Shown here in pieces: positions 1,100-37,500 of a stretch of 64,000 nucleotides of DNA. The DNA lies in assembly GCA_030704615.1 (NCBI GenBank), contig CM060731.1, positions 79,794,001 to 79,858,000 of the forward strand. The letters run 5' to 3'. The notes beneath the pieces were generated by a model. The model made no database searches and had not been told where the DNA came from. It worked only from the letters and a program-made list of their open reading frames with translations. How positions within the stretch are numbered: the first letter of the stretch is position 1; every line of letters starts with the position of its first letter. Both the position numbers and the translations under genes were made by a program. This DNA comes from Takakia lepidozioides. Lineage: Eukaryota; Plantae; Bryophyta.

Positions 1100-1111
1100 G
1101 CTCTGATACCA
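1100..1111 (-). promoter_or_regulatory. Primer binding site complementary to tRNA-Met(i)
   Basis: TGGTATCAGAGC on the minus strand, 2 nt downstream of the LTR terminal CA. Confidence 0.92.
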
Positions 1112-1113
1112 AG

Positions 1114-1830
1114 TGTCGTGCACCTCGCTTTGGTAAACTCCCCTTCAAGTCATAGTTACTCACTTTGATGCGCGTGCCTAACTCCCAAACTGGCCGCCGG
1201 GCCAATTCGGAGCTTCGGCTGCTCACCAGGGCATAACGGTCCCCCTCACACTCCCACTCGACCCTCGACCTCTTGGGCTCAGTGGAAATTCCCTTTGGTA
1301 GATGGTAGTCCGGAACAGCTCCCCACTCCTTGGTCGCTTTCCGGCTCGCACGCTTACTCACTAGTTTTTGGTCACCAACGGGCTTGCACCGTTCTCGGGG
1401 TTACTACTCCCTATATATACTTCTGTAGGTGTATCCACAAGTAGCCAAGTCCAAATCTGGTGCACCACCACTTAGACCCTCGACTATCCCTGTGATGAGC
1501 CACGGTGAGTCTTGGCCCATCTACCACGGCCCCAATGGACCGTGGTGAGTCCCAAGACTCCCCACGACTCCCACCACAAGGCCTCAGCCTCATGGTGAGT
1601 CCTATGCCACCCCCACTATGACTCCCTACGCTACCACCACCCCTCGTGGAGCCCCCACCACCGCAACCCGGTTTGCGGGGCTCCACCTAGTGAGTGCCTC
1701 CGCCTCCTTGAGTGGCCTTCGGCACTCAAGGGCGCTTTAGCCCCCTTTCCTATTTGCTGCCACTACCCCCACCACAGGGGCAGCCCCTCTTGTGTCCCGA
1801 CCCCCGCCCTCAAGGCAAAGGGCCGCGACA
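1114..1830 (-). repeat. 5' LTR (~717 bp) of the left Gypsy element
   Basis: Terminal inverted motifs tgtcgtg (1114) and cgcgaca (1830); TATA-like TATATATAG at ~1411-1419; internal repeated GGTGAGTC/GACTCCC motifs; Copia coding sequence resumes at 1831. The partner LTR is outside the window. Confidence 0.75.
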
Positions 1831-2339: not shown

Positions 2340-2379
2340 GGGCTGATCTGATTTGGATTGCGCTCTATGTTCAAGAAGC
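2340..2379 (+). mobile_element. LINE 3' remnant, left piece (target of the big insertion)
   Basis: TGC GCT CTA TGT TCA AGA AGC (CALCSRS) continues in frame at 14301 as CAT GAA TTT CTT GAA CAC TGC (HEFLEHC). Together they rebuild the LINE C-terminal CxxCxxxxExxxH zinc finger. Confidence 0.7.
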
Positions 2380-2464
2380 TGTCGTGCGCATACATATCGC
2401 TACACAACTACATCGCTGTCCAAACCACACCACACATATATGCACAATAAAGTAGTCTAGCACA
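2380..2464 (-). repeat. Repeat B, terminal copy (85 bp, TG...CA)
   Basis: Identical by eye to 2824-2908 (tgtcgtgcgcatac...gtctagcaca). Confidence 0.95.
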
Positions 2465-2465
2465 A

Positions 2466-2821
2466 TGATAAGAAAGCTAAAAGGACAAACACTCTCAACA
2501 CAAGAAATATGAAATCCCTCAACATCACTCTTTAAGATAATAGTCGAGCCAGGGGCACCCCAAGCTATGGGGACTCCACCCCACAACAACCTACACTCCC
2601 ATCATAAGCACACTCAGATCTGAAGAATGCAGGAGCTCGGTCGCGCAGGCTCAACTCGAGAGAGATGAGCTGCGCGACTGCCGCTCTCGTGAAGATAAGA
2701 CAGACCAGGTGTCAAAACTAAACTTGACACCTGATTTAACACTTGACCTAAATCCAAGTGTTAAATACAAATAACTAGTTTTATTCTAGCTGTTTTCACA
2801 CTGTGCTTATTTAACTTGACA
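2466..2821 (-). repeat. Repeat A, 3' copy (356 bp, TG...CA)
   Basis: Matches 13941-14296 with one mismatch found by eye (a2512 vs c13987). Confidence 0.95.
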
Positions 2822-2823
2822 GC

Positions 2824-2908
2824 TGTCGTGCGCATACATATCGCTACACAACTACATCGCTGTCCAAACCACACCACACATATATGCACAATAAAGTAGT
2901 CTAGCACA
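2824..2908 (-). repeat. Repeat B, internal copy (85 bp) directly after the polypurine tract
   Basis: Identical to 2380-2464; joined to A through the palindrome GACAGCTGTC (2818-2827). Confidence 0.95.
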
Positions 2909-2920
2909 ATCGCCCCCCTA
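2909..2920 (-). promoter_or_regulatory. Polypurine tract (plus-strand primer site)
   Basis: Minus strand TAGGGGGGCGAT immediately followed by TGTGCTAG, the start of repeat B. Confidence 0.75.
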
Positions 2921-3167
2921 GCTGGTGGATAGGTCCCTCTACCTCCAGATAGCTACAAGATGTAATAGCCACAGCCGTACTAAGTCCTCTATCACTGTCC
3001 CTATCGTGCTCAAACTCTATCAACCAAGAGGCCGGGTACAAGAGTAGCCCCATCGTTAGTCGCCGTCTTGCAATCTATGAACTTGAGCCAAGATCTCGTG
3101 TGTTCAAGGTCTCCTAGTAGCTGGGCCTTGCGTTTCTTGTTAGCCTCCATGGTTGTATCCACTCCCA

Positions 3168-6143
3168 CTATCCAATGCAATGTGGACATAACCAATCCCC
3201 ATCCGGAACCATCTCAAGAGGTGGAGTCAAGCATCCCATATGCCAACCTCTAGAGCACCGATCACACACCAGCATGGTGGCTGCCCCTTTAGCAGACCCA
3301 CACAACATGCACCTCAAACCTGCAGATACCACTGCCAGGTTTGGGTCAATCCTGCCATCGACATTCGGAAGGTGACATGGCGCACAATTACGCACATGGT
3401 CCTTCCAAGTTATGCCATCCCGACCCTCCAAGACCAAGACGCCTGAGGGCAAGACCTCTCGAACCCTCAAAATAACACGTCCTGCAGTCACATCCAGGGT
3501 CGTAGGAGCAGTCTGCTGCAGATAGACATAGTCACCAGGGTTGAATCTCCGAACCCCAGGACGATAGCCCCCACCACGTATGGTAGCATACCTCAACGTA
3601 TCACGGTGTTGTGCAATGGCAAGGTTCTCGAAAGCCATGGGCATGACTCTCTTGAACAACTCTGCACGCTGCTCACATGCACGTGCCCACACGTCCGGAT
3701 CGTCAAGGTTAAGAACTGTAGCAGCTTCTCTGCGAATGGATGTAGGCAAATCCGGCTCTCGGCCAAAGAGAAGAAAGTATGGTGAGAAGGAGGCAAGTGA
3801 TGCTTGCTTGCTGAACCTGTAGCCCATGGCTAACCAGGGTAACTGAAGGTCCCAATCTCCTAGGTGTCCCTTCTGCAAGCCATACTTGCGCAAACCCCTC
3901 TTTACTGTCTGAACAACTCTCTCTGCCAAGCCATCGGCTTCAGGATGATCCCGAGAAGTGGTGCGGTGGTCTATCAAGGCCTTGTCACACAAAGCCTGAA
4001 ACTCCCCCAAGAACTCTCTCCCTTGGTCCGTGAGTACCTCAGCTGGAGCACCGAATCGGCTAAGCACACAATCCAGGAATGCATACGCAGCTCCCTCACT
4101 AGCCTTATCAGGCAATGGAACCAATTCAATCCACTTGGAGAAGTGCTCCACCATCACCAACACGTACTTGTTGTGGCGCATGGTCAGTGGCAACGGCCCT
4201 GCGAAGTCAAGACTCCACCTGTAGCCCAATCCCATGATCGGAAGAGGGTGCAATTGTGGAGTAGGGGCGTTGAATGAAGCACGCACCCTGTCACACACCA
4301 TGCACCTAGCCACAAATTGTTGCACCTCTGTGTGCATACCACGCCACCAATACTGCCCCTGCAGTAGACTATGAGTGCGTCGCACCCCAAAATGCCCCAA
4401 CTCCTCATGGGCATGCCGCACTAACCGTGCCCGCTGTGTTGGGTGAGGCACAATCCTCACTCGACCATCCTCCCACACTCGGAGCAGGTGTGTCCCCTCC
4501 CACCTGAACCTCTTGGCTCGTTGTAGGATCCGATCCCTCTCCTTGGCAGTCATAGTGGCTGCCGTGTCTCCACTGCGGAGGTAGTCCAACACAACTGAAT
4601 CCTCATGTATATCTTTGGCGCCACCCTGCTCATTGCTGGCCTCAGGGTCCTCAGACACTTGATCTACAGTCATCCCTGTTGTAGGTCCAACCTGGCCTTC
4701 CGCTGCCAAGATACACAGAAATGCAGATGCATGCCATCCGGGCACCATCTCCTCGTCCGTCTCACCATGCCACCGAGCTCCAGTGTCATCCTGCTGGCTC
4801 GTGCATGGATTGCGACTCAACCCATCTGCATTTCGATTGACCAAACCCGGTCGATGCACCACCTGAAAGTCATACTCTTGAAGGATGAGTGCCCACCGTG
4901 CAAGCTTCCCCGTAAGCTTGTCTGACTCCATCAACCACTTGAGTGGTTGGTGATCCGTGACAAGGGTGAAGAGATTGCCGTATAGATAGCACCTGAAGTG
5001 TGCCACGGCCCACACTGCAGCTAAGCATTCTCCCTCATATGAGCTATACTTAGACTCTGCAGCATTGTTCGAGCGGCTAGCATAAGCCACTACGAACTCT
5101 CTTCCCTCATCATCCACCTGTGTGAGCACCGCTCCAAGCCCCAGCATGCTCCAATCTGTATGCAGCTGAAAAGGACGCCCCCTGATAGGTCGTCTCAAGA
5201 TGGGCGCCGAGGTCAACCTCGCCTTGAGCTCTTGAAAAGCTTGTTCTTGCTCATCTTCCCACTGCCACTCCTGGTCCACCTTGGTCAGCTTGGTTAGAGC
5301 CTTTGCAATGGCACTAAATCCCTTAACAAACCGTCTGTAATAGTTTGCTAACCCCATGAAAGCTCGAACTCGGCTCACATCCGTGGGGCGTGGAACCTGT
5401 GCAATGGACTCTACCTTAGTCTGCTGTACCCCCAATCCTCCAGGATATATCATGTGACCCAGATACTCAATCTGGTTGTGGAAAAACTTGCACTTGCCCG
5501 GATGTAACTTCAATCCGTGCGTCCTCAAGCGCTCAAATACCCCCTGAAGGTGTCTCTCATGCTCCTCCACCGTAGCACTAAAGATGATGATGTCATCTAT
5601 GTAGCACCGAGCAAACTCCACCCCTGCTAGAATCCTGTCCATGACTCTTTGAAACTCAGCGGGAGCGTTTTTAAGCCCAAATGGTAAGAACCGCCACTGG
5701 TATAGGCAATCCTTCCCGTGCTCATTGATCCCCCAGAATGCCGTCTTTTGCTTATCCGCCTCCTTGATCGGCAACTGGTGATATCCGGATCGTAAATCCA
5801 ACGTGCTAAAGACCTTGGAATGCCCAATGGCATCAAAGATCTCCTCTGGTGTTGGCATGGCATACCTATCGGACTTGGTCTGACGATTTACAGGCCGGTA
5901 ATCACCGCACATACGTCTCTCCGTCCAATTGCCATAGACATCCTTCTTAGCTGGCATCACTGTGGCTGAAGCATACTCTCCACCAGAGAGCTCCACCAAA
6001 CCTGCCTCCCAGAGATCTTGAGTCCTCATCTGAATCAAAGACCTCTCCATGTCACTGTATCTATAGGGTCTCCGAAAGATTGGCGTGTCAGTGGCCAACT
6101 CAATACGGATCTCTTGACCCTTCAGTGCTCCCAAGTCCTTCAA
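3168..6143 (-). CDS. pol: reverse transcriptase - RNase H - integrase (HHCC, DDE core) - C-terminal PHD finger
   Basis: Open 991-aa frame: RMCGDYRPVN, STLDLRSGYHQ, LPFGLKNAP, YIDD (Gypsy RT); LHTDWS...EGECLA (RNase H); HEELGH...CMVC, SLDFAGP, VLTDQGREF, HPEADGLAER (integrase); CMLC...CDRC...HMGC...WLCPHC (PHD, ~3177-3311). The frame continues upstream to a stop at ~6304. Confidence 0.95.
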   Translation of the reverse strand: MKDLGALKGQEIRIELATDTPIFRRPYRYSDMERSLIQMRTQDLWEAGLVELSGGEYASATVMPAKKDVYGNWTERRMCGDYRPVNRQTKSDRYAMPTPEEIFDAIGHSKVFSTLDLRSGYHQLPIKEADKQKTAFWGINEHGKDCLYQWRFLPFGLKNAPAEFQRVMDRILAGVEFARCYIDDIIIFSATVEEHERHLQGVFERLRTHGLKLHPGKCKFFHNQIEYLGHMIYPGGLGVQQTKVESIAQVPRPTDVSRVRAFMGLANYYRRFVKGFSAIAKALTKLTKVDQEWQWEDEQEQAFQELKARLTSAPILRRPIRGRPFQLHTDWSMLGLGAVLTQVDDEGREFVVAYASRSNNAAESKYSSYEGECLAAVWAVAHFRCYLYGNLFTLVTDHQPLKWLMESDKLTGKLARWALILQEYDFQVVHRPGLVNRNADGLSRNPCTSQQDDTGARWHGETDEEMVPGWHASAFLCILAAEGQVGPTTGMTVDQVSEDPEASNEQGGAKDIHEDSVVLDYLRSGDTAATMTAKERDRILQRAKRFRWEGTHLLRVWEDGRVRIVPHPTQRARLVRHAHEELGHFGVRRTHSLLQGQYWWRGMHTEVQQFVARCMVCDRVRASFNAPTPQLHPLPIMGLGYRWSLDFAGPLPLTMRHNKYVLVMVEHFSKWIELVPLPDKASEGAAYAFLDCVLSRFGAPAEVLTDQGREFLGEFQALCDKALIDHRTTSRDHPEADGLAERVVQTVKRGLRKYGLQKGHLGDWDLQLPWLAMGYRFSKQASLASFSPYFLLFGREPDLPTSIRREAATVLNLDDPDVWARACEQRAELFKRVMPMAFENLAIAQHRDTLRYATIRGGGYRPGVRRFNPGDYVYLQQTAPTTLDVTAGRVILRVREVLPSGVLVLEGRDGITWKDHVRNCAPCHLPNVDGRIDPNLAVVSAGLRCMLCGSAKGAATMLVCDRCSRGWHMGCLTPPLEMVPDGDWLCPHCIG

Positions 6144-6172
6144 ACTGAAGGCAAAGCAATTCCTGTAAGCCC

Positions 6173-7824
6173 TCAGGAACCGCCGTATACGTCGTCTCTC
6201 TCCTCCGGTGACAATGGGTCCAATGTCAGGCTCCCAATTGTCCTCCGTAACTGCAACCTTAAGTCCAGTGGGCTTAGAGGTAGAGGACGCGTCCCGTGGT
6301 TGCTATGCTGCAACCTCTTGAGCAGTACCCCTTCCTGCTCAGTCAATGACAAGGCCTCATCCTGCCCCATCATCTCATCATTGAGAACCTCCTCATCCCG
6401 AGAAGAATCCCCAACCTCATCCATCACAGCTGCCTTCGCTGCCAACTCCCTCTGAACCTCGAGCACCTCCCACATGTGCCATGGATGTCTACACCTCGTG
6501 GTCCTCACCGGCTCGCCCCCACTCGCTGCCTGTACCGTCTCGGTAGGCAGAGAGACCATCAAGGGAAGTGCACTCCGCACTCTACGTTGCTCAGCCATAG
6601 CCAAGCTGACAATCCAGGTCAAGCAATTGAGATCCATTGCTTGCCCCAACACCTGACGACGTGATGCCTCAGAAAGAGAAGGCACCGCCGTGGTCCCAGT
6701 GGAAAACCCCATAGCCCGCTCTCGCTCGTCGGCATTAGGCTCCACTAACTGCTGCAACTGAGCATCCCACAGGAGGCCAGGTCCACCATCCCGAAAAGCA
6801 TGGGATCCTGGGAAGCTGAGCAGTGTAGGTAATGCTGCTCGTGGTTGACCCACCCTGTTGACCACTGCCAAAGGCGAACGGTCATCGTGTCTCACACGTT
6901 GAGACTGCCTTCCTGTGTCCAAAATGCCATCCACGGTGAGGTGTGCTGGCCGCTGCACCCCATCAAATGCACGCTTGAGCAGTGCGGGTGGCATCAAGTT
7001 AGTCCACCATAGTCGTGGACGATGAGCCCGTGACCCCACTGCAGCTGCATCCAGCAATACTGCTGACCCAAGCCACGACCGGACTTGATGCACACTGGCC
7101 ATCACCCTGGCCCGAGAATCACCCATCAGTGGCACATTCTCCAAGATGTATGCCGGAGATACAGCCTGATGAAGCTGCAAGTGGCGCAAAATCCGCACCA
7201 TCTCCCAAAACAGACCCGTCCTCGAGTCTCGCAATCCATTGCCATGCCCGGCTGATGAATGCCCTTGGCAGGGCCAACCTGCCACTACCAGATCAATGGA
7301 GCCAACCCGCTCCAAATCCTGCGCCCCCAGCAACGCAATGTCTGCTGGCAAGGCCTGCTGATATCCACGAACTGCAGACACCGGCAACAACTCAGGGGCT
7401 GCTGCACCATCTGAGCAACATGGCGCAGTGAGACGCGTCGTGCAGTCTCATCCCTCTCCACATACAGGTAACGTCGAACTCGTACACCTGCCTGCAGCAC
7501 TGCAGCCAATCCAGTGCTGATCCCGCCAAATAAGTCCAGAAGGCATATGCCTTCATCCGGTCGCTGCCACACAAGAGGTGTGGTGTCCAATGGCGACAAC
7601 TGAGGTGGCCCTGGTGCAATCACCGCACTCTCCTCCTCTCCTGACGGTACAAAAGCTTCTACCCAAGCTTGTTGCACCCGTCCATCAGCAGCGTGCTGCA
7701 AATCCTTGCTCGTACCCCACAACGGAGTGTGAGCAACCATGGCAGGCAACTCCGCCGTACCATGCATGTCATCCTGCTCTGCTGGAGGTGGCACATCCTC
7801 TGCATGGGCATTGCCTTCCAGCAA
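6173..7824 (-). pseudogene. DNMT3-like cytosine-5 DNA methyltransferase domain inside the polyprotein (core ~7550-6610), one internal frameshift near 7395
   Basis: Motif I LDLFGGIS, II YVERD, IV DLVVAGWPCQG, VI YILENV, VIII AHRPRLWWTN, IX ERERAMGF, X RRQVLGQAM, in canonical (non-permuted) order, spread over ORFs 7285-7824 and 6173-7390. Confidence 0.92.
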
Positions 7825-10496
7825 CTCTCCAGGCCACTAACTGCAGCTGTGAAGGCGGCTAGTGTTGGCATCTTGCCCCGCTGAGCAGCTGCAATACCCC
7901 CAATGAATGTCACAGGGAGCTGTGCACGGCGACCATCCCCTGACTGCCATCCAGGCCTGTAGGATGCTGACTCCTCCCAGAAATCCAGGGTGAAGCCCAT
8001 GGGGTATAACACTGCCCCACCAACGAGGACATCGTAAGAGACCGCGTCTGTCACAATGGCCTTGGCTCGCATCACTGAGCCATCTACAGGATGATCCGGC
8101 TGCAGTCTAATAGCCAACTGATGCCGTGTCATGCCGCGAGCCTGCTCTGATCCTCCCAGAGATGTCTGTATCTGGAAAGGACAAGGCTCCATATCCGCCT
8201 CCATGAGGCCCAAACCTGCAATAGCAGCTCTGCCCAACATCAGTGGCTGAGCTCCTGAGTCCAACAAGACCCGCAGTGGCCGGTACTTCTTGCCTGCCGG
8301 TCCACTCAAAGTGAAAATGCCTCCCTGGTTGTCTAACAAGACAACTCCAGGTGTCACCATGGCGCGCTCAAAGGCTGGCCTAGCTGGCAGCTCCGTCAAT
8401 CTGGCAGCTGCAGCTTGCCAGGGCGCTGCCGTGGCAGTCTTGACCCTCAAATCCGAGGATCCCTCTGCCACTACACCTTCCACTAACTCCGCAGAAGATG
8501 AAGTGACCTCTCCACTCTCACAGAGTGTTGCTGCTAGTCTGAACACTGCAGCTGGTCTCACTCCCGGCGTCGCAATCATGGTTGCCGAGAACAGTGGGGC
8601 TTGACACACAGAGGTGGCTGCTCCCAATAACACACCGGCTGCACTAGCCTTGGTAGCAGGTGTCAGTGCTGCACGTGTAGCTCTTCCCAATGGCATAGTA
8701 ACCTCCGCCTCGGTAACAGTCGGGCGAGAACTAGGTGCCATGGATGGCGTTGACACTGTCTCCGCCAAGGTGAATGACTGAGGCAGCCTTGCCTGACGGC
8801 TTGCCTCCCCACGTTGTGGATCCAACTCCACCTCTGCACCTCGTGGCTCAGGAACTCGTGTTGCTCCTCGAGTCACGGCTGCAGCAGACTCCACCTGCTC
8901 TAATGGTAGTGCTGCTCCGCACATGAATCCCATTCCGCCCATATCTCCTCCCTCAGGAGCAGGAGGTGGGCCATCCCGCCTGGGAGCCGGTACCGCCTGA
9001 GCTATAGCCATGGCAGCGAGCCTCTGCTCTAGCTGCTGAAGCCGATTGGCCATGCCTTGGTCAACACCCTGACCTCCGCGTCCTTGGCCATGTGGAGGTT
9101 GCCCTTGGCCTGCACCTCGTGCCCGACCACCTCGTCCTCTTTGGGCTGGTCCACCTCGCCCCCGGCCACCATTGTTCCCTTGGAACTGGCCTGGGCGCAA
9201 CTCAGGATGCAAGTCATAACACTGGGCATCTCCATGCCCATACTTGCCACAATGCCCACACTGCAACTGTGCAGGCTGTGCTTGTGCCGGCCTTCTGCCA
9301 CTCTCTGGGCAATCTCTCTTGACATGGGGTCCTCCACATGTCCAACATATCACCCCTGGTTGCTGTTGGCCTGCAAAAGATGCCACGGGCCTCTGCACCT
9401 GAGGTCCCCTGTAAGCTCCATGGAACTTGGGCTGGGCAACCTTGCCCCCCTGACCACGCTGTTGGGCAGTCCCTTGTGCTTGTGGGCTGACAGCTGTGCC
9501 CCGTACAGGCATGTCCTTGCCAAATCCAATTGTAACAACTCGCTCCTCCACCATGTTGAGCTCAATCCGCTCAGCCAGCAGAAACACATCTGCTAATGTG
9601 GGTTGGGCTGCTTGTAACAGGGTTGCATCCGCACCCTTCTCCTGAGCTCCTTGTCCAAAATTCCATACCAAACTGGATTGCCTGAGCTTCAGTAACCCCT
9701 TGGGTCACACTTATCAAGCGCCTCATACGAGTGTACGCCTCTCGCAGGCTCTCACTGGGTTTGCGCTGGAAGTCTTGCAAACTTCGCAGCTTCTCTGTCC
9801 GTACACCTTGGTAGTTCCTCCGCAACTCCTGGAAGAACTCCACCACCGGGTTGAATCTAGGCAATTGTGTTGTAGTCGTGGCAGGAGAAGCACCTTTTGA
9901 ACTGGTACCACCTTCAGAAGTACCAGCACTACTTGCTCCACTACTAGTGCTGGCAGTGGGAGCTATTGGTACTGATGCAGCTACTGGTCGCGTCGTGCCT
10001 CGAGTAATGGAGACGTAGTCAGGTGACCAATACATCCTCCACTCCTCAATCTCTGCTTCATGTCCTCGCCTGAACTCGTGGTAATCGTCCATAGGCGGGC
10101 CTTCCAAATGCTGGAACAGTCCCTTCCACGCCATGAATGGGGTGAATAGCTGTGGATTGCGCATCTGCTGCAAATCACACCAGCTGTCGAACTCCTGGAT
10201 AAAGTCATCCAACTCGATTGTGCCCACAGCTCCAGAGTACCTACGAGGCCCCTTGGTAGCTCCATACATCACCTCCATGTCGTCCCACAACAATGGCGAA
10301 TGAAAGTGCACACCTGTTGATGAAGCCTCCGAGTCTGTGTCTGACGCTCTACAGTAGTTGAGGGTGGCGGTGAAGGTGGTCTGAACCGAATACCTCGTCT
10401 TGTGACCCCACTCTCACTGTCACTGCTTGTAGCCGTACTCCCCTCAAAACCCTTGGGTAACTCCGTAATGACACTCACAATGTGCACCTCCTCCAC
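7659..10496 (-). pseudogene. gag (capsid-like region + two zinc knuckles) and aspartic protease, frameshifted
   Basis: LDDFIQEFDSWC...QKPSESLREAYTRM-type gag; CWTCGGPHVKRDC and CGHCGKYGHGDAQC; protease LRVLLDSGAQ...DVLVG. Pieces in ORFs 10269-10496, 9571-10311 and 7659-9671 join after small indels (QF-WYGILDKELRRRVR-DATL). Confidence 0.88.
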
Positions 10497-11015
10497 GTGA
10501 CACTATAAGGCTCTAGTACTAATCTAATAGTGACACGGGTGGGCACCTGTTGCAGTCTAAGGGTCATATCCCAATGGCTCAGGGCACCTGCACCTGCATC
10601 CACCGCAAGAACTCCTATGGTTGGCTGGTCATCAACCCAGCCTCACCATAGAAGAAACACTGGTGGTCTTGCTGGTCATCACTCCAGCCTCACCACCGAC
10701 AGCATACTCTAGGATTGACCGGTGATCAAATCCGGCCTAATCCCTATGAAAGCAAGCGCCCACACAAAACCAACATGGCGCACAGTCAAGCATGCAGGTG
10801 TTGGGGGGGATCCAAACACAAGAAATCAAAACATCAACACCCCCACACCAAAATCCAGCAGCAACGCTGATCCTGCAGAATATCCCAGCCCAAAACCCCG
10901 GACTGACTGGCCTCCACCAAGAGAGGCTTTGGCAACTACAAGTACAAGGTAATGAAAATAGTACAGAGATGGAGGGGAAGAATAGAAGCCCGCCCAAGCA
11001 AGATCTAATCCTGAT

Positions 11016-11765
11016 CTATGCTATCAACTTCCAGACTTCTCTCAAAGTGCCTCGCTCTGCTTGATGGTAAGGTGTAGGAGGTATATCTATGTCCAGAAAC
11101 CTGCCACTAACCTTGTCCCAAGCTACAGTAGCTCGCTCTAACCAACCCTCCTCCTCTTTCTGCCAGGTAGAGACAAAGCAACACTCTGCTATCTCCCGCT
11201 CACTGAACACTAAAGAAAACAAAGGTAGGGTCTGATAGTCTCTCAACTCGAAAGCTTTGAGACGATTGCGGGTGTCTTCATTGCGAATGACTGCATCGCC
11301 TTCAAACAGAACAAACTTGTCCTCGCTAATGAACCCCCGCTCGTGGTTGCCTTGTGCAGAGCGTGTCCGACTGCAACACTGTCTAATTGCACAAACTTGT
11401 GCAGCTCCTGCTCCTCTGCTCCAGTACACCACGGCCTTGTGGCTGAACACCTTGGTCCCCGGGGCTGTCTTTGGCTGTGTTCCAAGCCTAGCTTTCACCC
11501 ACTTTGGTATTTCACCTACAGCTGCAGAACTGCTGGCTCCAACAGAGTTCTGACTGTCCAAGGCGATATTGAGGCCCTCAATGCCAACTACAGCAGTCTG
11601 TTGTCTACTGCTAATGCCTGACTCCCAGTATGCAATCAACTCGTCCAACTGTTCTCCACTCAAATCAGTCTGAGTTCCTTGGGAAACATAAATCGTGTCC
11701 CCTTGTGTGCACAGACTAAGAGAAGAGACCTGCCCTTCAATTACGTCCTCATTTCCCCCAGCCAT
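11016..11765 (-). CDS. Extra ORF upstream of gag inside the element, unknown function (249 aa)
   Basis: ATG-initiated intact 249-aa ORF on the same strand as gag-pol; no motif recognised. Confidence 0.55.
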   Translation of the reverse strand: MAGGNEDVIEGQVSSLSLCTQGDTIYVSQGTQTDLSGEQLDELIAYWESGISSRQQTAVVGIEGLNIALDSQNSVGASSSAAVGEIPKWVKARLGTQPKTAPGTKVFSHKAVVYWSRGAGAAQVCAIRQCCSRTRSAQGNHERGFISEDKFVLFEGDAVIRNEDTRNRLKAFELRDYQTLPLFSLVFSEREIAECCFVSTWQKEEEGWLERATVAWDKVSGRFLDIDIPPTPYHQAERGTLREVWKLIA

Positions 11766-12332
11766 GCATGGAGTACATCCACCAATTTGTCTCTCATATA
11801 GACCAGCACAGGTTCTAGAGACAGGATTGTGGATCTTTCATGGCACTCTCACACTCTAAAAATTCCATAGATTTTTAGCAGAGTCCCAAAAACGAAAACC
11901 AGGTTTAGATAGGTAGATTTCCCCTTTCTGCAGCTATCCCCCCAAAAACTGGGTCAAACAGAGTCCATTTGACAAAGATATGACCAATTAGGCTCTAAAT
12001 CCTTTAAATTAGATCAAAAGATTTTTATTTTATTTTTTTTAACACCCAAACGTTCTCGTCATTACAACCTGTTCCCAGGTTATCTACGGGTTCCCGAGGC
12101 CGTTCCCCGACTATGCTGACTCCGGGTCTTTGCTCTCACGGGACTTCATGTTCGTCATTGCCCAGGGAGAGAAGCAAGACGGACGCAGACGAGGGCAGCG
12201 ATGGCCAAGCCTGCGCGAGCAAGCAGGAACAAGGAGGTGGTGTGGGGTGTTGGCCGATTCGGCCGATCAAAGGGTTGCGCATGAGCAGCTTGCATGCTCG
12301 TCAATCTCCAAAGCCATGCAGCAGAGATGCCT

Positions 12333-12400
12333 GCTCCTGGTTCTGCTCCGTCAGCTCCTACCAGCTCCTGGTTCTGCTCAGTCAGCTCCTACCAGCTCCT
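12333..12400. repeat. 31-bp tandem repeat, ~2.2 copies
   Basis: gctcctggttctgctc(c/a)gtcagctcctacca at 12333 and 12364. Confidence 0.85.
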
Positions 12401-12487
12401 TGCTCTTAAAGGTTGTCCACTCAACCTCTCTCAAGCTGAGCGACCTAGAGACTACAAACAACATGCTTCGGCATCTCTCGGGAATCC

Positions 12488-12832
12488 ATGGCGCATGCGT
12501 TGCTTGTGAAGCCTTTGGTTCTGGTTAGTCCCAGGATTTGCAGCTCAATTCAGCACCAGCTCCGACAAACCGCCTTCTTGCCTCTCCCTCTGAGATCTGC
12601 AAGGACGAAATGTGTCGCTTCCAAACCATCAGCAAGCTTGACTTCTGAAGGATTCTGGACTCCTTCATCCAGTGACAGTCACCAAGTCTGGTTCATGAGG
12701 AGTGATCTGGAGTTACCCACCTCAGCTTATGCTTATGAGGGGCCAATTGCTCAGGGAGGGCAGGGCCCATCACCCATGTTGGCTGAGCGATTCCAAAGCG
12801 TGATCACTCAGCTTTTTCAACAACGAATCATT
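12488..12832 (+). pseudogene. ClpP5: Captured 5' fragment of nuclear-encoded plastid Clp protease subunit ClpP5 (transit peptide to start of the protease domain), antisense to the element
   Basis: MAHA...FWTPSSSDSHQVWFMRSDLELPTSAY...QGGQGPSPMLAERFQSVITQLFQQRII matches my recollection of the ClpP5 N-terminus (LWTP...VWSIRDDLQVPSSPY...QGQGPPPMVQERFQSIISQLFQYRII); similarity stops abruptly. Confidence 0.8.
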
Positions 12833-12919
12833 ATACCTTGGCTGGCCGATACTGCCCGTTCCAACTGGAGTCGGCATTTTGTGTCTTCACAAAACCAAAC
12901 AAAACCAAACTGCAGGAAT

Positions 12920-13590
12920 TCGCGATTGCCTCAGTAAAGTGGAACTCAATCTGCAGCCGCTGGTGCAATGGGACCTTGCCAAGCAGCCCCTTCTTGATGT
13001 CAATCTGCAGCTCGCGCAAAGGAAGCGCAGCAAGAAAAACTCCTTCACAAATTGACGGCAGGCACCTCTTCCAACATGCACCACCTCAGCAGCAGCAAGG
13101 TCCAAGCCATTGGGTTTTTCATCAAAGGCGACAAGTGCAGTTACTGGGGAAATCTGCTCACCCTCAGCCTGCAGGTCCCCCTTTCTATATCAATTGCTCA
13201 TACAACCCTTCTTAGAACCCTGTGTAGGAGCTTTCCGGATGTTTTTCCCTGCAGCCATGACGGACACTGTGAACGGGAGCTTGGCCTTCAACGCTACTGC
13301 CTGTTTGCGCTTCGAACATACGATTGTGATCTGCCCACCAAGCCAAGGTGTCTGCCACCGTACTCCCCCGCTGCACGGATGGCATGCAGCTCAGTCTTTC
13401 AACCCGTTTTCTTTTGGTGGAATTCTGGCTCAAGCGGGGAGCTATTTCTGGAGCTCGTGTTTACCACCCTCCTACAACTGGCAACGAGAGAAACCCTACC
13501 AGCTGCTATACGACAGTGGTTTCAGGACCTTCGTCCAAGTAGCTATGGATCCTTTATCCTGCACAGCCTTTCGACAAGATCATTGTGATC
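12920..13590 (+). pseudogene. Possible second captured fragment, degenerate F-box-type gene
   Basis: SRLP...KWNSICSRW...TLPSSPFL resembles the end of an F-box motif, and IVICPPSQGVCHRTPPL resembles the VxNPxT...LPP motif of F-box-associated domains; frameshifted and weak. Confidence 0.3.
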
Positions 13591-13928
13591 GAGGTCTGTC
13601 CTCAGAACCTCGCACTCGAACTAGATCGCAGCTTGCTTCTGCAGGTAGCTTGCAAGCGTGGAATCCCGTCTTCCCCTTTCAATCATAGGTTATGGTGAAC
13701 ACATTCTTCTGCTCCCCCCCCCAAATCAACTTCCTCCAAAATACATCGCTCCTGTGCAACAACAACAAAACGGAAAACACTTCTTGGACGAGCTTGGTAT
13801 GGCTTATAACGAGTTGGAGAACCACGTTGTCATCAAGCATGCCGCTCTCTTCACCTTGACCATCGACATAGTGCTAACATAAAAGAACTCTATCTAGCTT
13901 AGCACTACAAGAAAACTAGATACAGCCA

Positions 13929-13940
13929 ATCTCTCTCGAG
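13929..13940 (-). promoter_or_regulatory. Non-tRNA primer-binding-like site, complementary to a segment of repeat A
   Basis: atctctctcgagt (13929-13941) is the exact reverse complement of actcgagagagat (14129-14141); there is no TGG-initiated tRNA PBS next to repeat A. Confidence 0.7.
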
Positions 13941-14296
13941 TGATAAGAAAGCTAAAAGGACAAACACTCTCAACACAAGAAATATGCAATCCCTCAACAT
14001 CACTCTTTAAGATAATAGTCGAGCCAGGGGCACCCCAAGCTATGGGGACTCCACCCCACAACAACCTACACTCCCATCATAAGCACACTCAGATCTGAAG
14101 AATGCAGGAGCTCGGTCGCGCAGGCTCAACTCGAGAGAGATGAGCTGCGCGACTGCCGCTCTCGTGAAGATAAGACAGACCAGGTGTCAAAACTAAACTT
14201 GACACCTGATTTAACACTTGACCTAAATCCAAGTGTTAAATACAAATAACTAGTTTTATTCTAGCTGTTTTCACACTGTGCTTATTTAACTTGACA
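13941..14296 (-). repeat. Repeat A, 5' terminal copy (356 bp)
   Basis: 355/356 identical by eye to 2466-2821; followed by the TSD AAGC. Confidence 0.95.
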
Positions 14297-14300
14297 AAGC

Positions 14301-15071
14301 CATGAATTTCTTGAACACTGCCTGGTGTGCTACCCCAGGCAAAAAGAGTTTGGTTCTTGGTGATAAGATTCTACTCTAATTGGGAAGCTCTTCTAGTTCT
14401 CTCCCTCTCCTCCCTCTCCTCCCTCTTACTTCTTAATATTAGACATGGCAGACCTATGCTTAGGTGCGTCGTGTGGGGATGTCTGAGAGCTCATACCCTC
14501 TAGTCTATTTGGAAGTCAAGATGTGCTTGGATCTTCCAGGGTAAACCCCCAGTCTCAGATTTATGTTGTTTCACATCTATGTTGATCTAGGGGAGGAAGA
14601 CTTGGGTCAGTGTGGAACTCTTCCCCGAGCTTCAGATCGACGCAAGATGCAACTTTTCCAAGAGTTTGATCTCACCTGGGGCAAGAATGGCCTCCTCGGC
14701 ACTCGTGTTTCCAACCCTTCCGTTCAGTGGAAAGACTCCGTCCCCCCTCAATGGGAAATCCCCGGCTGAAGACGAGGATGTAGACTTTAAGCGACGCCAC
14801 AAACGTACGTGATTCTAAGTTGAAAACACAACTTAAGTTTTAGTACTCCAGCCGTTGGTAGGAGGCCTCCTCTGTCGGACTCGGATACAATCCAGCTACT
14901 GCTCCTCCCCATCTTTTGCCTCCCAAGTCACCTCTATGTTTTCCCTGCTGTAAGCCTTTACTGGCCCTGAGTGGTTATTTTTTCCACTTTGCTTAAATAC
15001 ATTTCCAGGGCCTCTGTCTCCATGTTCTCTTGAAACACTCTTTTCCCTGTTTTATTAAAAAAAAGAAAAAA
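14301..15071 (+). mobile_element. LINE (L1-like) 3' remnant, right piece, ending in an A-rich tail
   Basis: Zinc-finger continuation HEFLEHCL...QAKRVW, C-terminal ...FQEFDLTWGKNGLLG...W, then TTTATTAAAAAAAAGAAAAAA at ~15051-15071. Confidence 0.6.
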
Positions 15072-31563: not shown

Positions 31564-34500
31564 ATGAGCGTGGAAGATGAAGCCGTGGTGGCCGACATCG
31601 AAGTGGCAGGGCGCCTCCTCAGCGATACCATTGGCAGGGACCTCCGTTTTGCGTCGTGTGACCTACTAGATGCCCTTGATGCTGCCCGGTATTCAAGCCA
31701 TCCATATTCTACTCCTCCTAAAGAGGTAAATTGCCCGTGATCAGGGCTCTTTTTTTTTGCAAATAAACGTATGTCTAGCATAAATATCTGATCACCCAAA
31801 AATGTTGAAGCTGGGTACTGCATTCATGTGGAAAGCGAAGGATGGAAAATATTTCAGCGTTACTACCAGAGTGTACAATCTGATCAATGTAAAGGCACTG
31901 ATGAAACCGGCACTGCTCGTTTACTTCGTGTGTTGACCTAATCCCTTCAAACTGGAAGTACAGTGAAGAGATGAAAATCCTGCAACACTGCACTTATTTG
32001 CTTCCACGTAGTAAAGAATCGTTGAGGTGTGCGAGAAATTTTTTAACTCAAAATGGTTCAGACCCTAAACTTCAGATTGAAGAGGGGTTTCATAGTTAAA
32101 AAACTTAAGTGGTTTGTGGTGATTTTAAATCAACTATGTGTTTTGTAGGGTTTTTGCCCACTTGAGCATCCTAAACCCTAAGTCTGGGCTTAATTTTAGT
32201 TTATAAAGTTGAGCTTGAGCAGATGTCTGTGCTTATCTCCAGCTGTTATGAGACGTGGTTTAAAATTTACACAGGACTTCATCATTCTTTGTAATTTTTA
32301 TTACTGTTAAGTGATGGTTTTGACTTCCCTTTAAATCCCTGCTTTGCTGTATGGAATGCAGCTGTATAATTTTGGAACATTGTGCACTTCAACCTGGGGC
32401 ACCTAGAGCAGAATCAACTTTGTAGAGTTTCATGAATCTAATATGCTCTCTTCTATGATTTGCGACTTGTGTAGTGGCCACCCTTTGTGGATGTGATAAA
32501 TTCGAGGGAACTCCCGCCTGTGCTGATCGAGAGGTACAATTCGGCTGGTGGGCAAGGAACAGCGCTCTGTGGTATCTTCCCAGGAATCAGGCGTGCGTGG
32601 GCCACAGTGGACGACACTTTGTTCCTTTGGAGATTTGATAAATGGTAAGAGGTGGTGTGGAATATCTGTATATTATGGTACAAACTCTCAAAGTATTGTA
32701 CAGGGAAATATCTCTTTGACACTAAATATCCCCCCTTAGCTCTCCGGAGTTTTGGTCCCCATCGCCTCACTCATCCTCCCTTTTCATATGAGACCTGCCT
32801 CTTGGATGGCCACCTTCTGACTTATCTTATCCTTGGGATGTTCAGAAGTGGAACCCGACACTTCACTGTAAAACTTTGTCGGTCCACCAGAGCCTCAGTC
32901 AACTGTCGACTTACATTCCGAATGTACTCCAACTACAGCTCTGAATGCCACACCCAATGAAAGGATGTCACAGAACATGGCATCCAGAGTTACTCAATCC
33001 CTAGATGTGTTCGGCTGACTTTGTTTGAATGGTGAGAAGAAGCCTGACAATTAGGTAGGTTAAATACAAGAAGATTTTGTGTCAAGATGGAATTTGTGCC
33101 GTAGGGTATCCATCAGTTGACTGCCCTGTCATTTTACCTCTCAAGGCAAATGGGAATGAGCTCAAAGTTTTCTGTTGTCACTGGTCCTAGGACTAATCAG
33201 TGAAAAGGAATTCATAAGCTGAAAGAAGCAAGTGGCTACACAGGGATGGGCAGTGTCCAGAGTATAGCGGTGAAGAGCAGGCTATATGTGCAGTGGGATT
33301 GGCCAGAGCCAAGCCTGGCGTGTTCGTCGAAGCTATCCAACACCTGATTGTGCTGGCTACCCCAGTTGAGGTGGGGACCTTACCATAGTGACTAATAGTT
33401 AAAGTATTTGTGCTGAGGGAGGGGGAAGGAGATGGAACGGGGCTAAATGATTTAGATAGAAGTAAGGATGCGATGTGCTTGCAAGATGAAGTTATATTGG
33501 TATAGACAATTCTATGAAGGCAATAAGCCACAGCCCCCTTGGTCAGTGGGCTTGACGCCTGCAAAATCTTCAGTGTTAATCTATTGATCGTAAAAATTTC
33601 TCATACGATCTTGGTCAATTGTTGACTATTCTAGGTTCCTCTTGTTTATCGTCACTTCATGGGTCATGTTTCCTTTTGGTCTGTTGTTTCTGATACAGAG
33701 ATGAAGGGCTAAACCTTGGTTTTGTGCAACTTGTGAGGCAGATTGTTCTACTGGGTGTATGCTGTAGTGGGAATGGTGGTGGTGGGGATCCATATGCAGA
33801 ACTATCTTTGCAACCATTGCCAGAATACAGCATTCCAACAGATGGAATTACGATGACTTGCATCACATCAACTGAAAAGGGGCGGATCTTTCTTGGGGGT
33901 CAAGATGGCCATCTGTATGAGCTGTTGTATACTACAGGCATGGGCTGGCAAAGTCGTTGCCGCAAGCTGTGCCATACTGGAGGCCTGGGTAGCCTTCTTT
34001 CTAGGTTCTTTCTCTCGCTTCCACTTGTAGCTACCAGTTCTCTTTCTCATTAGTTTCAATGGGCTTTTCCTGTGTGCTTCAGTTTTTCCCACCAGTTTCT
34101 TTCGTTGTCCACTATTCCCTTTGTTCTTCTGGCAGCAGAAACTATTGTTCAGTTGGTCTCTGTCCTGGTCTTTTTCAATGTATTTCTACTCTTACACAAG
34201 GAGATTTCCAGTACTATGCATATCAATGTAACAATCCTAACAGTCATGCTTTCTCCAGGTGGGTGGTGCCAAATGCTCTGAAATTTGGGGCAGTTGATGC
34301 AATCATAGAGATTGTGACTGATGATGAAAGAAACATCCTGTACACGCGTACTCAGGAATCTAAGATTCAGGTATTTGATTTGGGCAAGACTGGAGACAGT
34401 GTTCCCAAGAAAGTTGCTGAGGAAGGTCGTGTTGGTGACCAAAGAGACTCACGGGGCCGGTCTGTGGGGAGCCGAAATGTTGCCCGTGCCATTAAGGCCA

Positions 34501-37500
34501 CCATAATTTCTATTGCTCCTGTGTCCCCTCTAGAATCCAAGTGGTTACATCTAGTAGCCATTGCATCAGATGGGCGTAGAATATATTTGTCAACGTTTCC
34601 ATCGACAGGAAGCAGCATTACAGCAGTGAATGGAGCAGCTGGTGGTGGGACCCATCGCCCATCAGTTCTGAGGGTGGTGATGACACGGCCAGCTCCTTCG
34701 ATCGGTGTTGGTGGAGGCATCACATCATTTGGAACTCTTTCCATGGGTGGACGGTCACAGGCGGATGGAGGGCTTGTGGTAAAGGCAGAAACTGCCCACT
34801 ACTCCAGTGGGGCCCTTGCACTATCAGATGCCTCCCCACCAACAGTATCCCGCCTGTTGCTTGCTACTCGGGATCTTACTGTTCCTGGCACAGTAACGCC
34901 CGGCAATCTGTCATTGGGCGTGCAGGGAACAACGTCACGCACACTGCGCTCGCTACGAGAGATGGTGACAGTGCTGGGTGTTGAGGGGAGGGCACTGGCG
35001 ATAGCTGATGTTTTGCCTCCCCCTGAACGGGCAGCAGCAGTTGAGTTCTCTGTGTGGGAACCAGGCAGCATTGCACCTGGCAAACAACATATGAATGAAG
35101 AAACCACACGGGCTCGCCGGCTGTGGGCTCGTGGGGAGCTAGCAACCCAACATTTATTACCGAGACGGCGTGCTATTGTGTTAAGCACTATGGGTTGGAT
35201 GGAAGTGGTATTTAATCGACCGGTTGATCTCTTGCAAAGATTGCTTGAACTGAACACCCTCAGGTCCGTACTCGAAGATTTTTTCCAGCGATTTGGGTCT
35301 GGAGAAGCTGCTGCAATGTGTTTGCTCCTTGCAGCCCGACTTACTTCTGACGAGGAAAATGTGGTACCAGTGGCAATAGCTGAGCGGGCGGCTGAAGCAT
35401 TTGAGGATCCCAGGCTGGTTGGAGTTCCACAAATGCAAGGTGGGGGGGCACCCACAGGTGGGGTCAACTCCACGGGAGGTGGGTTTAACATGGGTCAAGT
35501 AGTGCAAGAAGCAGAGCCAGTATTCTCTGGGGCCCATGAGGGTCTTTGCCTATGCACAGCCAGGTTGCTACGGTCAGTGTGGGAGCTTCCAGTGTTTGAT
35601 GTAAAAAAGGAAGCAGGGATTGAGAGCAATGGAGATGGAGGTGTCATTTCCTGCAGGTCAGTGTGGAGTTCTTGTTTGATGTGCTAAGTGACTGGTACTC
35701 TGCTCATATAGGGCAAAAAGTATTTATGAGTCACTACTCAAATAAACAGAGGAAGAACTTGTCTAAACACACAAGGTTGTAATGCTGAGGCAACACCTTA
35801 TTGTTTGTCTAGCATGTTCCTTTGGTACAGGTTTGAGGTGTTCTGTGTATCATCTGTCAAACAGAGGAATGATTCATATGCCACCCTTCCGCCTCTGAGT
35901 GGGTTGTGTGGCCTTTAGAAAGAAAGAAGAAGTCCGGAATCTCATTGTAGTCTGTCATAACCTCCACCATGACTAGTACATTGCTGCAGGTTACCTGTTG
36001 AAGCGATGCAAGCATTGGAAGATAAAATCCGCTCACTGGAGCAATTTTTAAGGGCCCGCAGGAATCAAAGAAGAGGGCATTATGGTCGGATCATGGGTAT
36101 AGGTGACATGTCTGGTTATGGAGACCGTCAAGGGAGCTCATTTGGCGCAGATGGGTTTGCTAGAGGGGAGGCAGGGGGCAGCAAATTGGTTGGGTATGAG
36201 ACCCCCCAGGTTCGAGGAGGGGGAGACCGGAGCAGTGCACAAGCAACATTGCACAAACGCCAGCGTGTGCCCTACAGCCCTTCTGAGCTGGCAGCAATGG
36301 AGGTGGGAGGTTCATGGCTTGTTTCCAAGTGGTTCTGAAACTGGTTGTATGCTGCACGTTTAAAAATTTGCTGCATTCAGGCATCAGCTCATACTTTTAT
36401 TCCTGGTTTCATATTATTTCCTTTCTCATGCTAGCACACACGTTATTGCCTAAGTCCAGCTGTCTGACATATTGTGTTTTTCCAAGGAGGTCGATCCTTT
36501 GTTTTGCAGCTGGGTTCTTGGTTTGGGTGTGACTTATATTCTTTTAGAAATTGGCATACATGTTGTGCAGCTGTATGTCTTCTTACATTCCATTCTCAAG
36601 GGTCAAAGCCTATTCTGATGTTCTGTGATTTCTGAAGATATCCTTGGGGTCTTCAAGCCATAATTCTGATGACAAATCAACCCTGGGTGGCTAACAGGTG
36701 CGAGGCATGGAATGTATACGCCGGCTACTGAGACGGTCAGGGGAGGCTCTGCGTTTGCTTCAGCTGCTGCAGCAGCACCATGTAGCACGATTGGCCCAGA
36801 GCCTTGACCCCTCGCAACGCCGCCAGCTATCCCAGCTTACTTTTCACCAGCTTGTCTGTTCCCCTGATGGGGACCAGATTGCTACTCGCCTTGTGGCGGC
36901 ACTCATGGAGGTAAGTGTATTTTGCATGTATGCCTGAATTTTCAAGTGATTTATGCCTTCTGGATTTATCCTGGACATTTTAGGGTGCCTGACCAGAAGC
37001 CCTTGTTCTGAGAAAATGAAGGTTTCTATTTTCTGTCTCGCAAAGAGTACTCCCAAGTCTGGAGATCCCTACAGTAGTTCTACTCGTGTATAGCAACAGT
37101 GGTTTTAACATATGTCCATCGATCCAAGATGGAGAATCCTGAGCCACAAGTTTTGAAGCTTTCAGAAAGGCTTTGTCTCTGTCAGCTTAGCCTTTCACTT
37201 GACTTATTTGTGAAAGATTGGGGCTTGGTGCGCGAGATGTTGTTAAGTAGGGGTTTTGTGTTTGCAGTACTATGTGGCACCTGATGGCAGAGGCACAGTG
37301 GATGACATCAGTGTCAAGTTGAGGGAGGGGTGTCCAAGCTATTACAATGAATCAGACTACAAGTTCTTCCAGGCTGTTGAGTGCCTAGAGAGGGCTGTGG
37401 GCACCCGTGACACAGAAGAGCGGGAGAAGCTGGCCAGAGAGGCTCTGGATTTGTTGGGCAAAGTTCCCGAAACAGCTGACCTACTGAGCATTTGTCAGCG

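Follow-up and report, generated by a model that had tools for sequence, protein, structure and literature searches.

The window, the 64,000-nt stretch of Takakia lepidozioides DNA analyzed here, holds a whole Ty3/Gypsy element, with all of its genes on the minus strand and with the layout, in full, A1-internal-polypurine tract-B1-GC-A2-B2. The features of the element and its target site are as follows.

2380-14296, minus strand: whole Ty3/Gypsy element, A1-internal-B1-GC-A2-B2, with ends TGTCA...CGACA
14297-14300, minus strand: target-site duplication, left copy, 4 bp (GCTT)
2376-2379, minus strand: target-site duplication, right copy, 4 bp (GCTT)
13942-14296, minus strand: repeat A1, 355 nt, with a single mismatch to A2 at 13987/2512
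2467-2821, minus strand: repeat A2, with second copies of the hairpin (2640-2678) and the primer (2654-2666) described below
2824-2910, minus strand: repeat B1, 87 nt
2380-2466, minus strand: repeat B2; at the A2/B2 joint (2467/2466), the two predicted cDNA ends meet flush
2911-2919, minus strand: polypurine tract ending G6-C-G
2816-2830, minus strand: B1/A2 junction palindrome GACA-GC-TGTC, a head-to-head copy of both element ends
9571-10413, minus strand: gag, first part (Retrotrans_gag, E 5e-4, below the curated cut-off)
7659-9704, minus strand: continuation of gag, carrying zinc knuckles and a stretch that resembles protease (LLDSGA; weakly matching P0046)
6173-7836, minus strand: C5 cytosine methyltransferase, in two frames (7285-7836 and 6173-7447)
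3168-6302, minus strand: reverse transcriptase (RT), RNase H, DDE integrase, and PHD finger

Coding is spread across five reading frames. The C5 methyltransferase (PF00145, E 4e-13) precedes RT in pol and is split between two frames; thus, this is a broken copy of the element, even though A1 and A2 are identical but for one base. The integrase has rve and H2C2 domains, and a PHD finger is present instead of a chromodomain, with no match to Chromo or SH3_Tf2-1. The homologues with names are from Calypogeia, Riccia, Marchantia, Klebsormidium, Closterium, Tetraselmis, and Tetrabaena. We considered and rejected the reading of the split repeats as those of a tyrosine-recombinase element (Ngaro, PAT, or VIPER), given the DDE integrase, the 4-bp target duplications, and the lack of any tyrosine recombinase match among the open reading frames (ORFs) scanned.

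Several other observations concern the element and its surroundings. The leader (10414-13928) is ~2.7 kb longer than that of the related locus L016; its 273-amino-acid ORF (11016-11837, minus strand) has no Pfam match, and parts of the leader match possible RNA contigs that continue into other sequence. In run X1, summed contig depth across A and B (14005-14290 and 2380-2960) was some hundred times that of the leader, a figure that is not a copy number but that hints at many solo or non-autonomous A-B units. One relative, L069, carries a B-A-B arrangement of another family at 6688-7200. The rebuilt target site (14297-14320 and 2362-2379) is an inverted repeat, GTTCAAGAA, a 9-nt loop, and TTCTTGAAC, with the insertion at the edge of the loop. 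The left-hand flank (1840-2376) resembles, by eye, a decayed Copia gag-protease remnant, and a host gene for a Nup133-like nucleoporin, with Pfam N- and C-terminal domains, lies on the plus strand at 34005-41378.

Next to the 5′ repeat lies a short sequence whose complement is found within that repeat.

13929-13941, minus strand: predicted primer-binding site, complementary to 14141-14129
14129-14141, minus strand: predicted self-primer, 13 nt; its first base, 14141, is also the predicted 5′ end of the RNA, which may instead lie a few bases upstream

The site, ACTCGAGAGAGAT (13941-13929, minus strand), abuts the end of repeat A1 (14296-13942) and is the complement of ATCTCTCTCGAGT (14141-14129) within A1. 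The first-pass annotation of this DNA had described a perfect 13-bp inverted copy here, and the description proved exact on re-reading: 13929-13941 is the reverse complement of 14129-14141 at 13/13 bp, with a mismatch at both flanking positions. A 13-nt complement starting no more than 3 nt from the repeat end arose in 0/20,000 dinucleotide shuffles of repeat A, and any 13-nt inverted partner 20 to 355 nt upstream was found at 40 of 127,140 window positions (both strands). The same annotation had noted that no tRNA-type site follows repeat A, and this also held. There is no TGG at the end of A1; the nearest (13928-13926) is 13 nt downstream, and most of the related contigs in run X1 carry a change in it (13927 C>T, depth 7146/9574). 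ARAGORN found no tRNA gene within the 64-kb window and made two implausible long-intron calls in relative loci. Among the variants listed for the host-type runs, none falls in the primer (2654-2666) or the site (13929-13941), and both flanks vary. The neighboring Gypsy element carries TGGTATCAGAGC at 1111-1100 (minus strand), 2 nt past the end of its long terminal repeat (LTR), which we take to be an initiator tRNA-Met site. That LTR (1100-1830, minus strand) ends TGTCGCG...GCACGACA, and the same end motifs form the internal palindrome of the element studied here.

The pairing recurs, in different letters, in related elements. From 87 relative loci we obtained eight further families with a repeat-A end and a candidate primer. 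The primer/site pairs are AGTTCTTTGAGT in F1 (L032 and others), ATTCTGTGAAGT in L039 with L010, ATTCTTGTCAAGT in L005, ATCTTTGTCAAGT in L081, AGTTTTTCTAGAATT in F2 (L037), ACTCTCGGAAAGT in L011, and CTCTTTTCGCAT in L026, together with ATTTTTGGTGATT in L063 with L050, which pairs at 12/13 and was read from two different copies. With the window included, nine families thus have nine different pairs of 12 to 15 nt, eight of them perfect and one 12/13, and not one of the nine sites opens with TGG. The first-pass annotation had named covariation of site, loop, and stem across divergent family members as a check; what is kept in all nine families is the pairing of site and partner and not their letters. 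In the seven families that have the TATA-like box described below, own pairs matched at 83/84 anchored bp, versus a cross-family mean of 6.5/12, and only 1 of 5,040 primer-to-site assignments scored as well as the true one, a figure that is not a clean probability because the families are related and six of them were chosen by a complementarity scan, which favors perfect pairs. That scan, of 88 sequences, also gave about three dozen unrelated inverted pairs of 11 to 13 nt. Because contigs were collapsed, the end of A is not defined by a second copy in L005, L081, L011, or L026. Counting against ascertainment bias are the L010 site, which we had predicted from L039 before reading it, and F1 and F2, in which direct repeats fix the end of A. 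Ten F1 5′ loci (nine insertions) comprised three that pair at 12/12, three at 11/12, and four with a partial deletion of hairpin and primer. Among viral contigs there was a single distant locus, which lacks the junction palindrome, and the chlorophyte-like loci L083 to L086 gave no usable ends. L081 and L082 (genome_contigs) are plant-type retrotransposons binned in a cyanobacterial metagenome-assembled genome; this binning is likely contamination, as is that of L083 to L087.

The position of the partner relative to a promoter-like motif suggests where the RNA would start. The distance from a TATA box to the transcription start is about 30 nt, and in seven of the nine families a TAT(A/C) box, the sole TAT within 40 nt upstream, begins 29 to 32 nt before the first A of the partner (-29 in L005, L081, and L063; -31 in the window, F1, and L039; -32 in F2).

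14167-14172, minus strand: weak, putative TATA-like box TATCTT at -31; six related families have TATA there

The partner is therefore likely to be the 5′ end of the RNA. We counted against this reading the fact that the box in the window is TATCTT rather than TATA; the relatives nearest to the window in spacing likewise have TATC at -31. In L011 and L026, the 40 nt that precede the partner contain no TAT. In five of the seven families, perfect pairing goes no further than the predicted +1 A; in L005 and L039 it extends three bases past it, and in the window a single mismatch past 14141 is followed by six more pairs (two of them G-U). Since complementarity in some families reaches 3 to 7 nt upstream of that +1, the start is not pinned to a single base, and we infer from these sequence features that transcription starts at 14141 or a few bases upstream. 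Of the two possibilities that the first-pass annotation had raised, a Tf1-like start near 14141 thus gains support, as a prediction, from both the covariation among families and the fixed distance to the box.

If the RNA begins there, the element would need a cut at the 3′ end of the primer, and two kinds of evidence bear on its position. The first is a second helix, in which the last three bases of the primer and the next five or six pair with a GCTYGAC motif further down A.

14017-14025, minus strand: partner of 14131-14123 (the primer end and the next six bases), forming the second helix at the predicted cut site

This helix is common to five families, with covarying pairs (5, 117, 7, 19, and 15 of 500 shuffles were equally stable); elsewhere, 257/500 shuffles were equally stable in F6 and 130/500 in F2. 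In the window, primer bases 10 to 13 are predicted to pair at equilibrium with the second helix and not with the site (site pairing, 0.08), so that a rearrangement, a swap of partners, would be needed for priming. Site-flanking duplexes of the Tf1 type exceeded shuffles in 1 of 14 tests, a test that short duplexes may escape. The second kind of evidence, an independent mark, comes from the joints between A2 and B2. We read 17 independent joints. Nine are flush, with A joined to the base after a G-run-C-purine tract; those of L002 and L014 keep polypurine-tract bases, one of the two with an insertion; and the six from F2 take several forms, one with a long deletion. Where B does not start with A (L039, L063, and L082; in the latter two the site comes from a related copy), the joint is without the A that opens the site. 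These joints suggest that this A belongs to the primer duplex and that the DNA copy ends one base before it, with the last U of the primer paired to it. For the window we predict a cut between 14129 and 14128, a position with a one-base uncertainty, since B, too, begins with an A.

Taken together, the perfect pairing of site and repeat with different letters in each family makes it likely that the front end of the element's own RNA is the primer, and we consider it probable, judging from sequence, that this element and its relatives self-prime in a Tf1-like way. An alternative is that the pairing is a structural signal, for packaging, dimerization, or translation control, and that reverse transcription uses some other primer. 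Covariation demonstrates pairing rather than priming, and the 5′ region folds strongly overall (z = -7.5), as such a signal might. However, in every family the site begins exactly at the repeat boundary, the joints put the cDNA end at that same first base of the site, and no other primer site is visible; we therefore regard a purely structural role as unlikely.

The other possibility raised by the first-pass annotation rested on a hairpin around the partner.

14115-14153, minus strand: hairpin straddling the predicted start, with its 5′ arm (14153-14141) almost wholly upstream of the start

The GC-rich stem (14115-14128 with 14141-14153) was confirmed, with 13 pairs and one bulged base. The placement of the partner in the loop stood in part: 14129-14140 is indeed a 12-nt loop, but the 13th base of the partner, 14141, belongs to the closing pair of the stem, and RNA folding adds three pairs within the loop. 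The hairpin alone folds at -26.1 kcal/mol, and the 71-nt hairpin region has z = -3.0 (2/200 shuffles equally stable). Two more perfect hairpins (11 and 13 bp) lie at 14193-14263, in A upstream of the predicted start.

From this arrangement it had been proposed, as a new variant, that the RNA starts further upstream and that the primer is displayed in the loop, makes a loop-loop or pseudoknot contact with the site, and is released by cuts on either side of it. Both the window and L039 do have a real and stable stem, L011 has a hairpin without a TATA at -30, and nested folding, which cannot model a loop contact, is compatible with one. Nevertheless, the loop geometry did not survive comparison across divergent families: only the window and L039, two of seven, keep the primer in a loop. 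In F1, L005, L081, and L011 it is the primer itself that pairs with the upstream arm, whose sequence is like that of the binding site; the L063 stem covers most of the primer by eye but is not above shuffles (225/500); and F2 (L037) has no hairpin. In all seven families, moreover, the TATA-like box puts the start at the first base of the primer, which would leave the stem's 5′ arm out of the 5′ copy in the RNA. A 13-bp helix inside a closed 12-nt loop is also sterically unlikely. Display and excision of the primer thus seem to us quite improbable.

Instead, under self-priming from the RNA 5′ end, folding points to the opposite of display as the effect shared among families: the hairpin would hide the primer wherever bases upstream of the start are present. 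Arm strength beat shuffles in F1, L005, L081, and the window (1, 4, 0, and 24 of 500 equally strong, respectively) and was not above them in L039, L063, and F2 (140, 225, and 360 of 500). In folds begun at the predicted +1, primer:site pairing was 0.64 to 0.99 in 8/8 copies. Adding 45 upstream bases lowered it from 0.75-0.87 to 0.00-0.01 in L032, L005, and L081 and to 0.29 in L011; such masking failed in the folds of the window (0.69 to 0.66), L016, L037, and L026. The hairpin fold and the primer:site fold compete in the window, where masking varies with the assumed 5′ end (0.31 to 0.44 at 12 to 20 nt upstream and 0.84 to 0.95 at 45 to 155 nt). In a fold of the window's A2-B2 RNA end, the hairpin has a probability of 1.0. 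Because it straddles the predicted start, the hairpin likely masks the primer copy at the 3′ end of the RNA, and on these models it would do the same in read-through RNAs. Hairpin deletions were seen in 4/9 F1 5′ copies (L002, L003, L004, and L058) versus 0/7 3′ copies (Fisher P = 0.069), and the loop is inverted in L050/L053 at about 2105-2140; these changes may reflect skipping of the hairpin when single-stranded plus strong-stop DNA is copied.

Two further explanations fare worse. A host tRNA half, tRNA fragment, or other small RNA might prime, with the match inside A being secondary, as half-tRNA priming is described for plant Copia lineages in the part of that source drawn on here (PMC6317226); against it are the nine different site sequences, each matched in cis and none opening with TGG, and an Rfam scan of 13700-14400 in which all six matches fell far below gathering scores, and we judge it very unlikely. 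As for a chance inverted repeat, the scan did turn up its three dozen unrelated pairs, but the result of the shuffles, the fixed position at the repeat end, and recurrence in eight other families refute it, and we give it practically no weight.

The ends of inserted copies bear on how the DNA product would be integrated. A 4-bp target duplication was found in eight of nine copies with both ends, L002 matching once its end coordinate is shifted by one base and L076 giving no match. The junction palindrome, CACGACA-NN-TGTCA, is conserved across relatives; a conserved CA at the end of A or TG at the start of B is absent across families. None of 13 independent 5′ ends is preceded by B. Integrase cutting is therefore not symmetric, and symmetric cutting of a plain 2-LTR circle, which we also considered, is by itself a poor fit. 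About half of the 3′ ends (16/33) show B only. Copies with an A-internal-B layout and no A2-B2 were seen at L003, L032, L073, and 13 other loci, three of them with intact 4-bp duplications; integrase double cutting, B1/B2 recombination, and assembly collapse are candidate causes.

We propose the following cycle. RNA starting at about 14141 would fold back on 13941-13929, and RNase H, by analogy with Tf1, would cut it after U14129, at about base 13, beside the second helix with 14025-14017. The freed primer would start minus-strand DNA synthesis through A1; the DNA would then jump to A2, continue through B1 and the genes, and end at 13942, a position that the A2/B2 joints would record and that they show in part. 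The plus strand would start at 2919-2911, copy the primer, and so rewrite the binding site in each cycle, which, by the logic of standard reverse transcription, would explain why covariation between primer and site is complete. Formation of the hairpin would require RNA that contains sequence upstream of the start and would thus be confined to the 3′ copy A2 and to read-through RNAs. Finally, the two cDNA ends would likely be joined, and integrase would cut at the CACGACA-NN-TGTCA palindrome, producing the 4-bp duplications; the absence of a conserved CA or TG at the A end and B start fits such a step. More tentatively, and with some doubt, we hypothesize that the whole constitutes a self-priming switch gated by the start site, with an origin separate from that of Tf1, in which an anti-primer arm immediately before the start makes the primer inaccessible both in the 3′ repeat and in read-through RNAs, and each inserted copy's A2/B2 joint records the cut sites at the primer and the polypurine tract; in this hypothesis the ragged ends of self-priming would be tolerated because the copy ends are joined and integrase cuts an internal palindrome.

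We compared this arrangement with known systems, using parts of the sources cited. In those parts, the self-priming group comprises Tf1/Tf2 of Schizosaccharomyces pombe, Tj1, Tosmo, and Tf1/sushi elements, whose self-primer is the 5′ terminus of the mRNA and whose self-priming was shown experimentally in the fission yeast elements (PMC4600332, PMC5341516, bioRxiv 10.1101/2022.12.06.519325). As in Tf1/sushi, a site beside the 5′ repeat complements the predicted first bases of the RNA, there is no tRNA site, and RT, RNase H, and integrase are of the Ty3/Gypsy type. Unlike those elements as described there, ours has a PHD finger and a cytosine methyltransferase in place of a chromodomain, its repeats are split, and no conserved CA integrase end closes the repeat ahead of the site. 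The two site-flanking duplexes of Tf1 were not recovered; here there are instead a second helix at the primer 3′ end and a hairpin across the start.

Self-priming has also been predicted in a few chromovirus and Copia lineages, namely, those of Tcn1 (chromoviruses of mosses and club-mosses) and TAR (Copia) (PMC6317226, PMC2864245). Like ours, these are plant LTR elements for which self-priming was predicted on the basis of complementary sequences alone; they differ in their ordinary two-LTR layout and, for Tcn1, in the chromodomain; the portions of text consulted make no mention of a PHD or methyltransferase lineage. KnitGypsy-Dnmt3 of Klebsormidium nitens has Gypsy domains and DIRS-like repeats (de Mendoza et al. 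2018, PMC5890265, Fig. 4c legend) and shares with our element a cytosine methyltransferase in pol and A-coding-B-A-B repeats; the main text, in the portions consulted, gives no primer site, priming, or integration mechanism. Our RT groups with Klebsormidium elements, which are database entries named "putative retrotransposon protein" and not the sequences of de Mendoza et al. Gypsy-7a_cRei of Chlamydomonas reinhardtii, an active element compared by its description, likewise combines a PHD finger with LTR subparts in a Gypsy element, and the part of its source consulted makes no statement on the primer (PMC9940879). For the integration step, foamy virus integrase, which cuts a palindromic 2-LTR circle junction, is a precedent for opening a palindromic junction to make processed ends (PMC1180852, in the part consulted); its palindrome is where the two cDNA ends have been joined, whereas here the palindrome is internal to the repeat, away from the real joint.

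In the RT tree, which has no labeled Tf1 or Tcn1 sequence, the lineage stands as a separate clade (100/100), and its placement as sister to two chromovirus-like plant proteins is not rejected (p-AU 0.297); that tree thus gives no support for an origin independent of chromoviruses. We found no report of a primer for this lineage in the literature searched; the REM1 paper, Repbase notes, Craig's thesis, and supplements lie beyond that search and may bear on it. What we describe is likely a known mechanism, self-priming, in a lineage for which no prior report was found, working as in Tf1/sushi elements in an element that has no chromodomain. If this is true, the methyltransferase/PHD Gypsy clade of liverworts, mosses, and algae would add another case of self-priming, possibly an independent one. 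Since the cDNA ends survive as an internal joint, its primer length and cut sites would be readable from genomes alone; the hairpin across the start would offer a testable answer to how the second copy of a self-primer is kept from interfering, and the Marchantia relatives make such tests practical.
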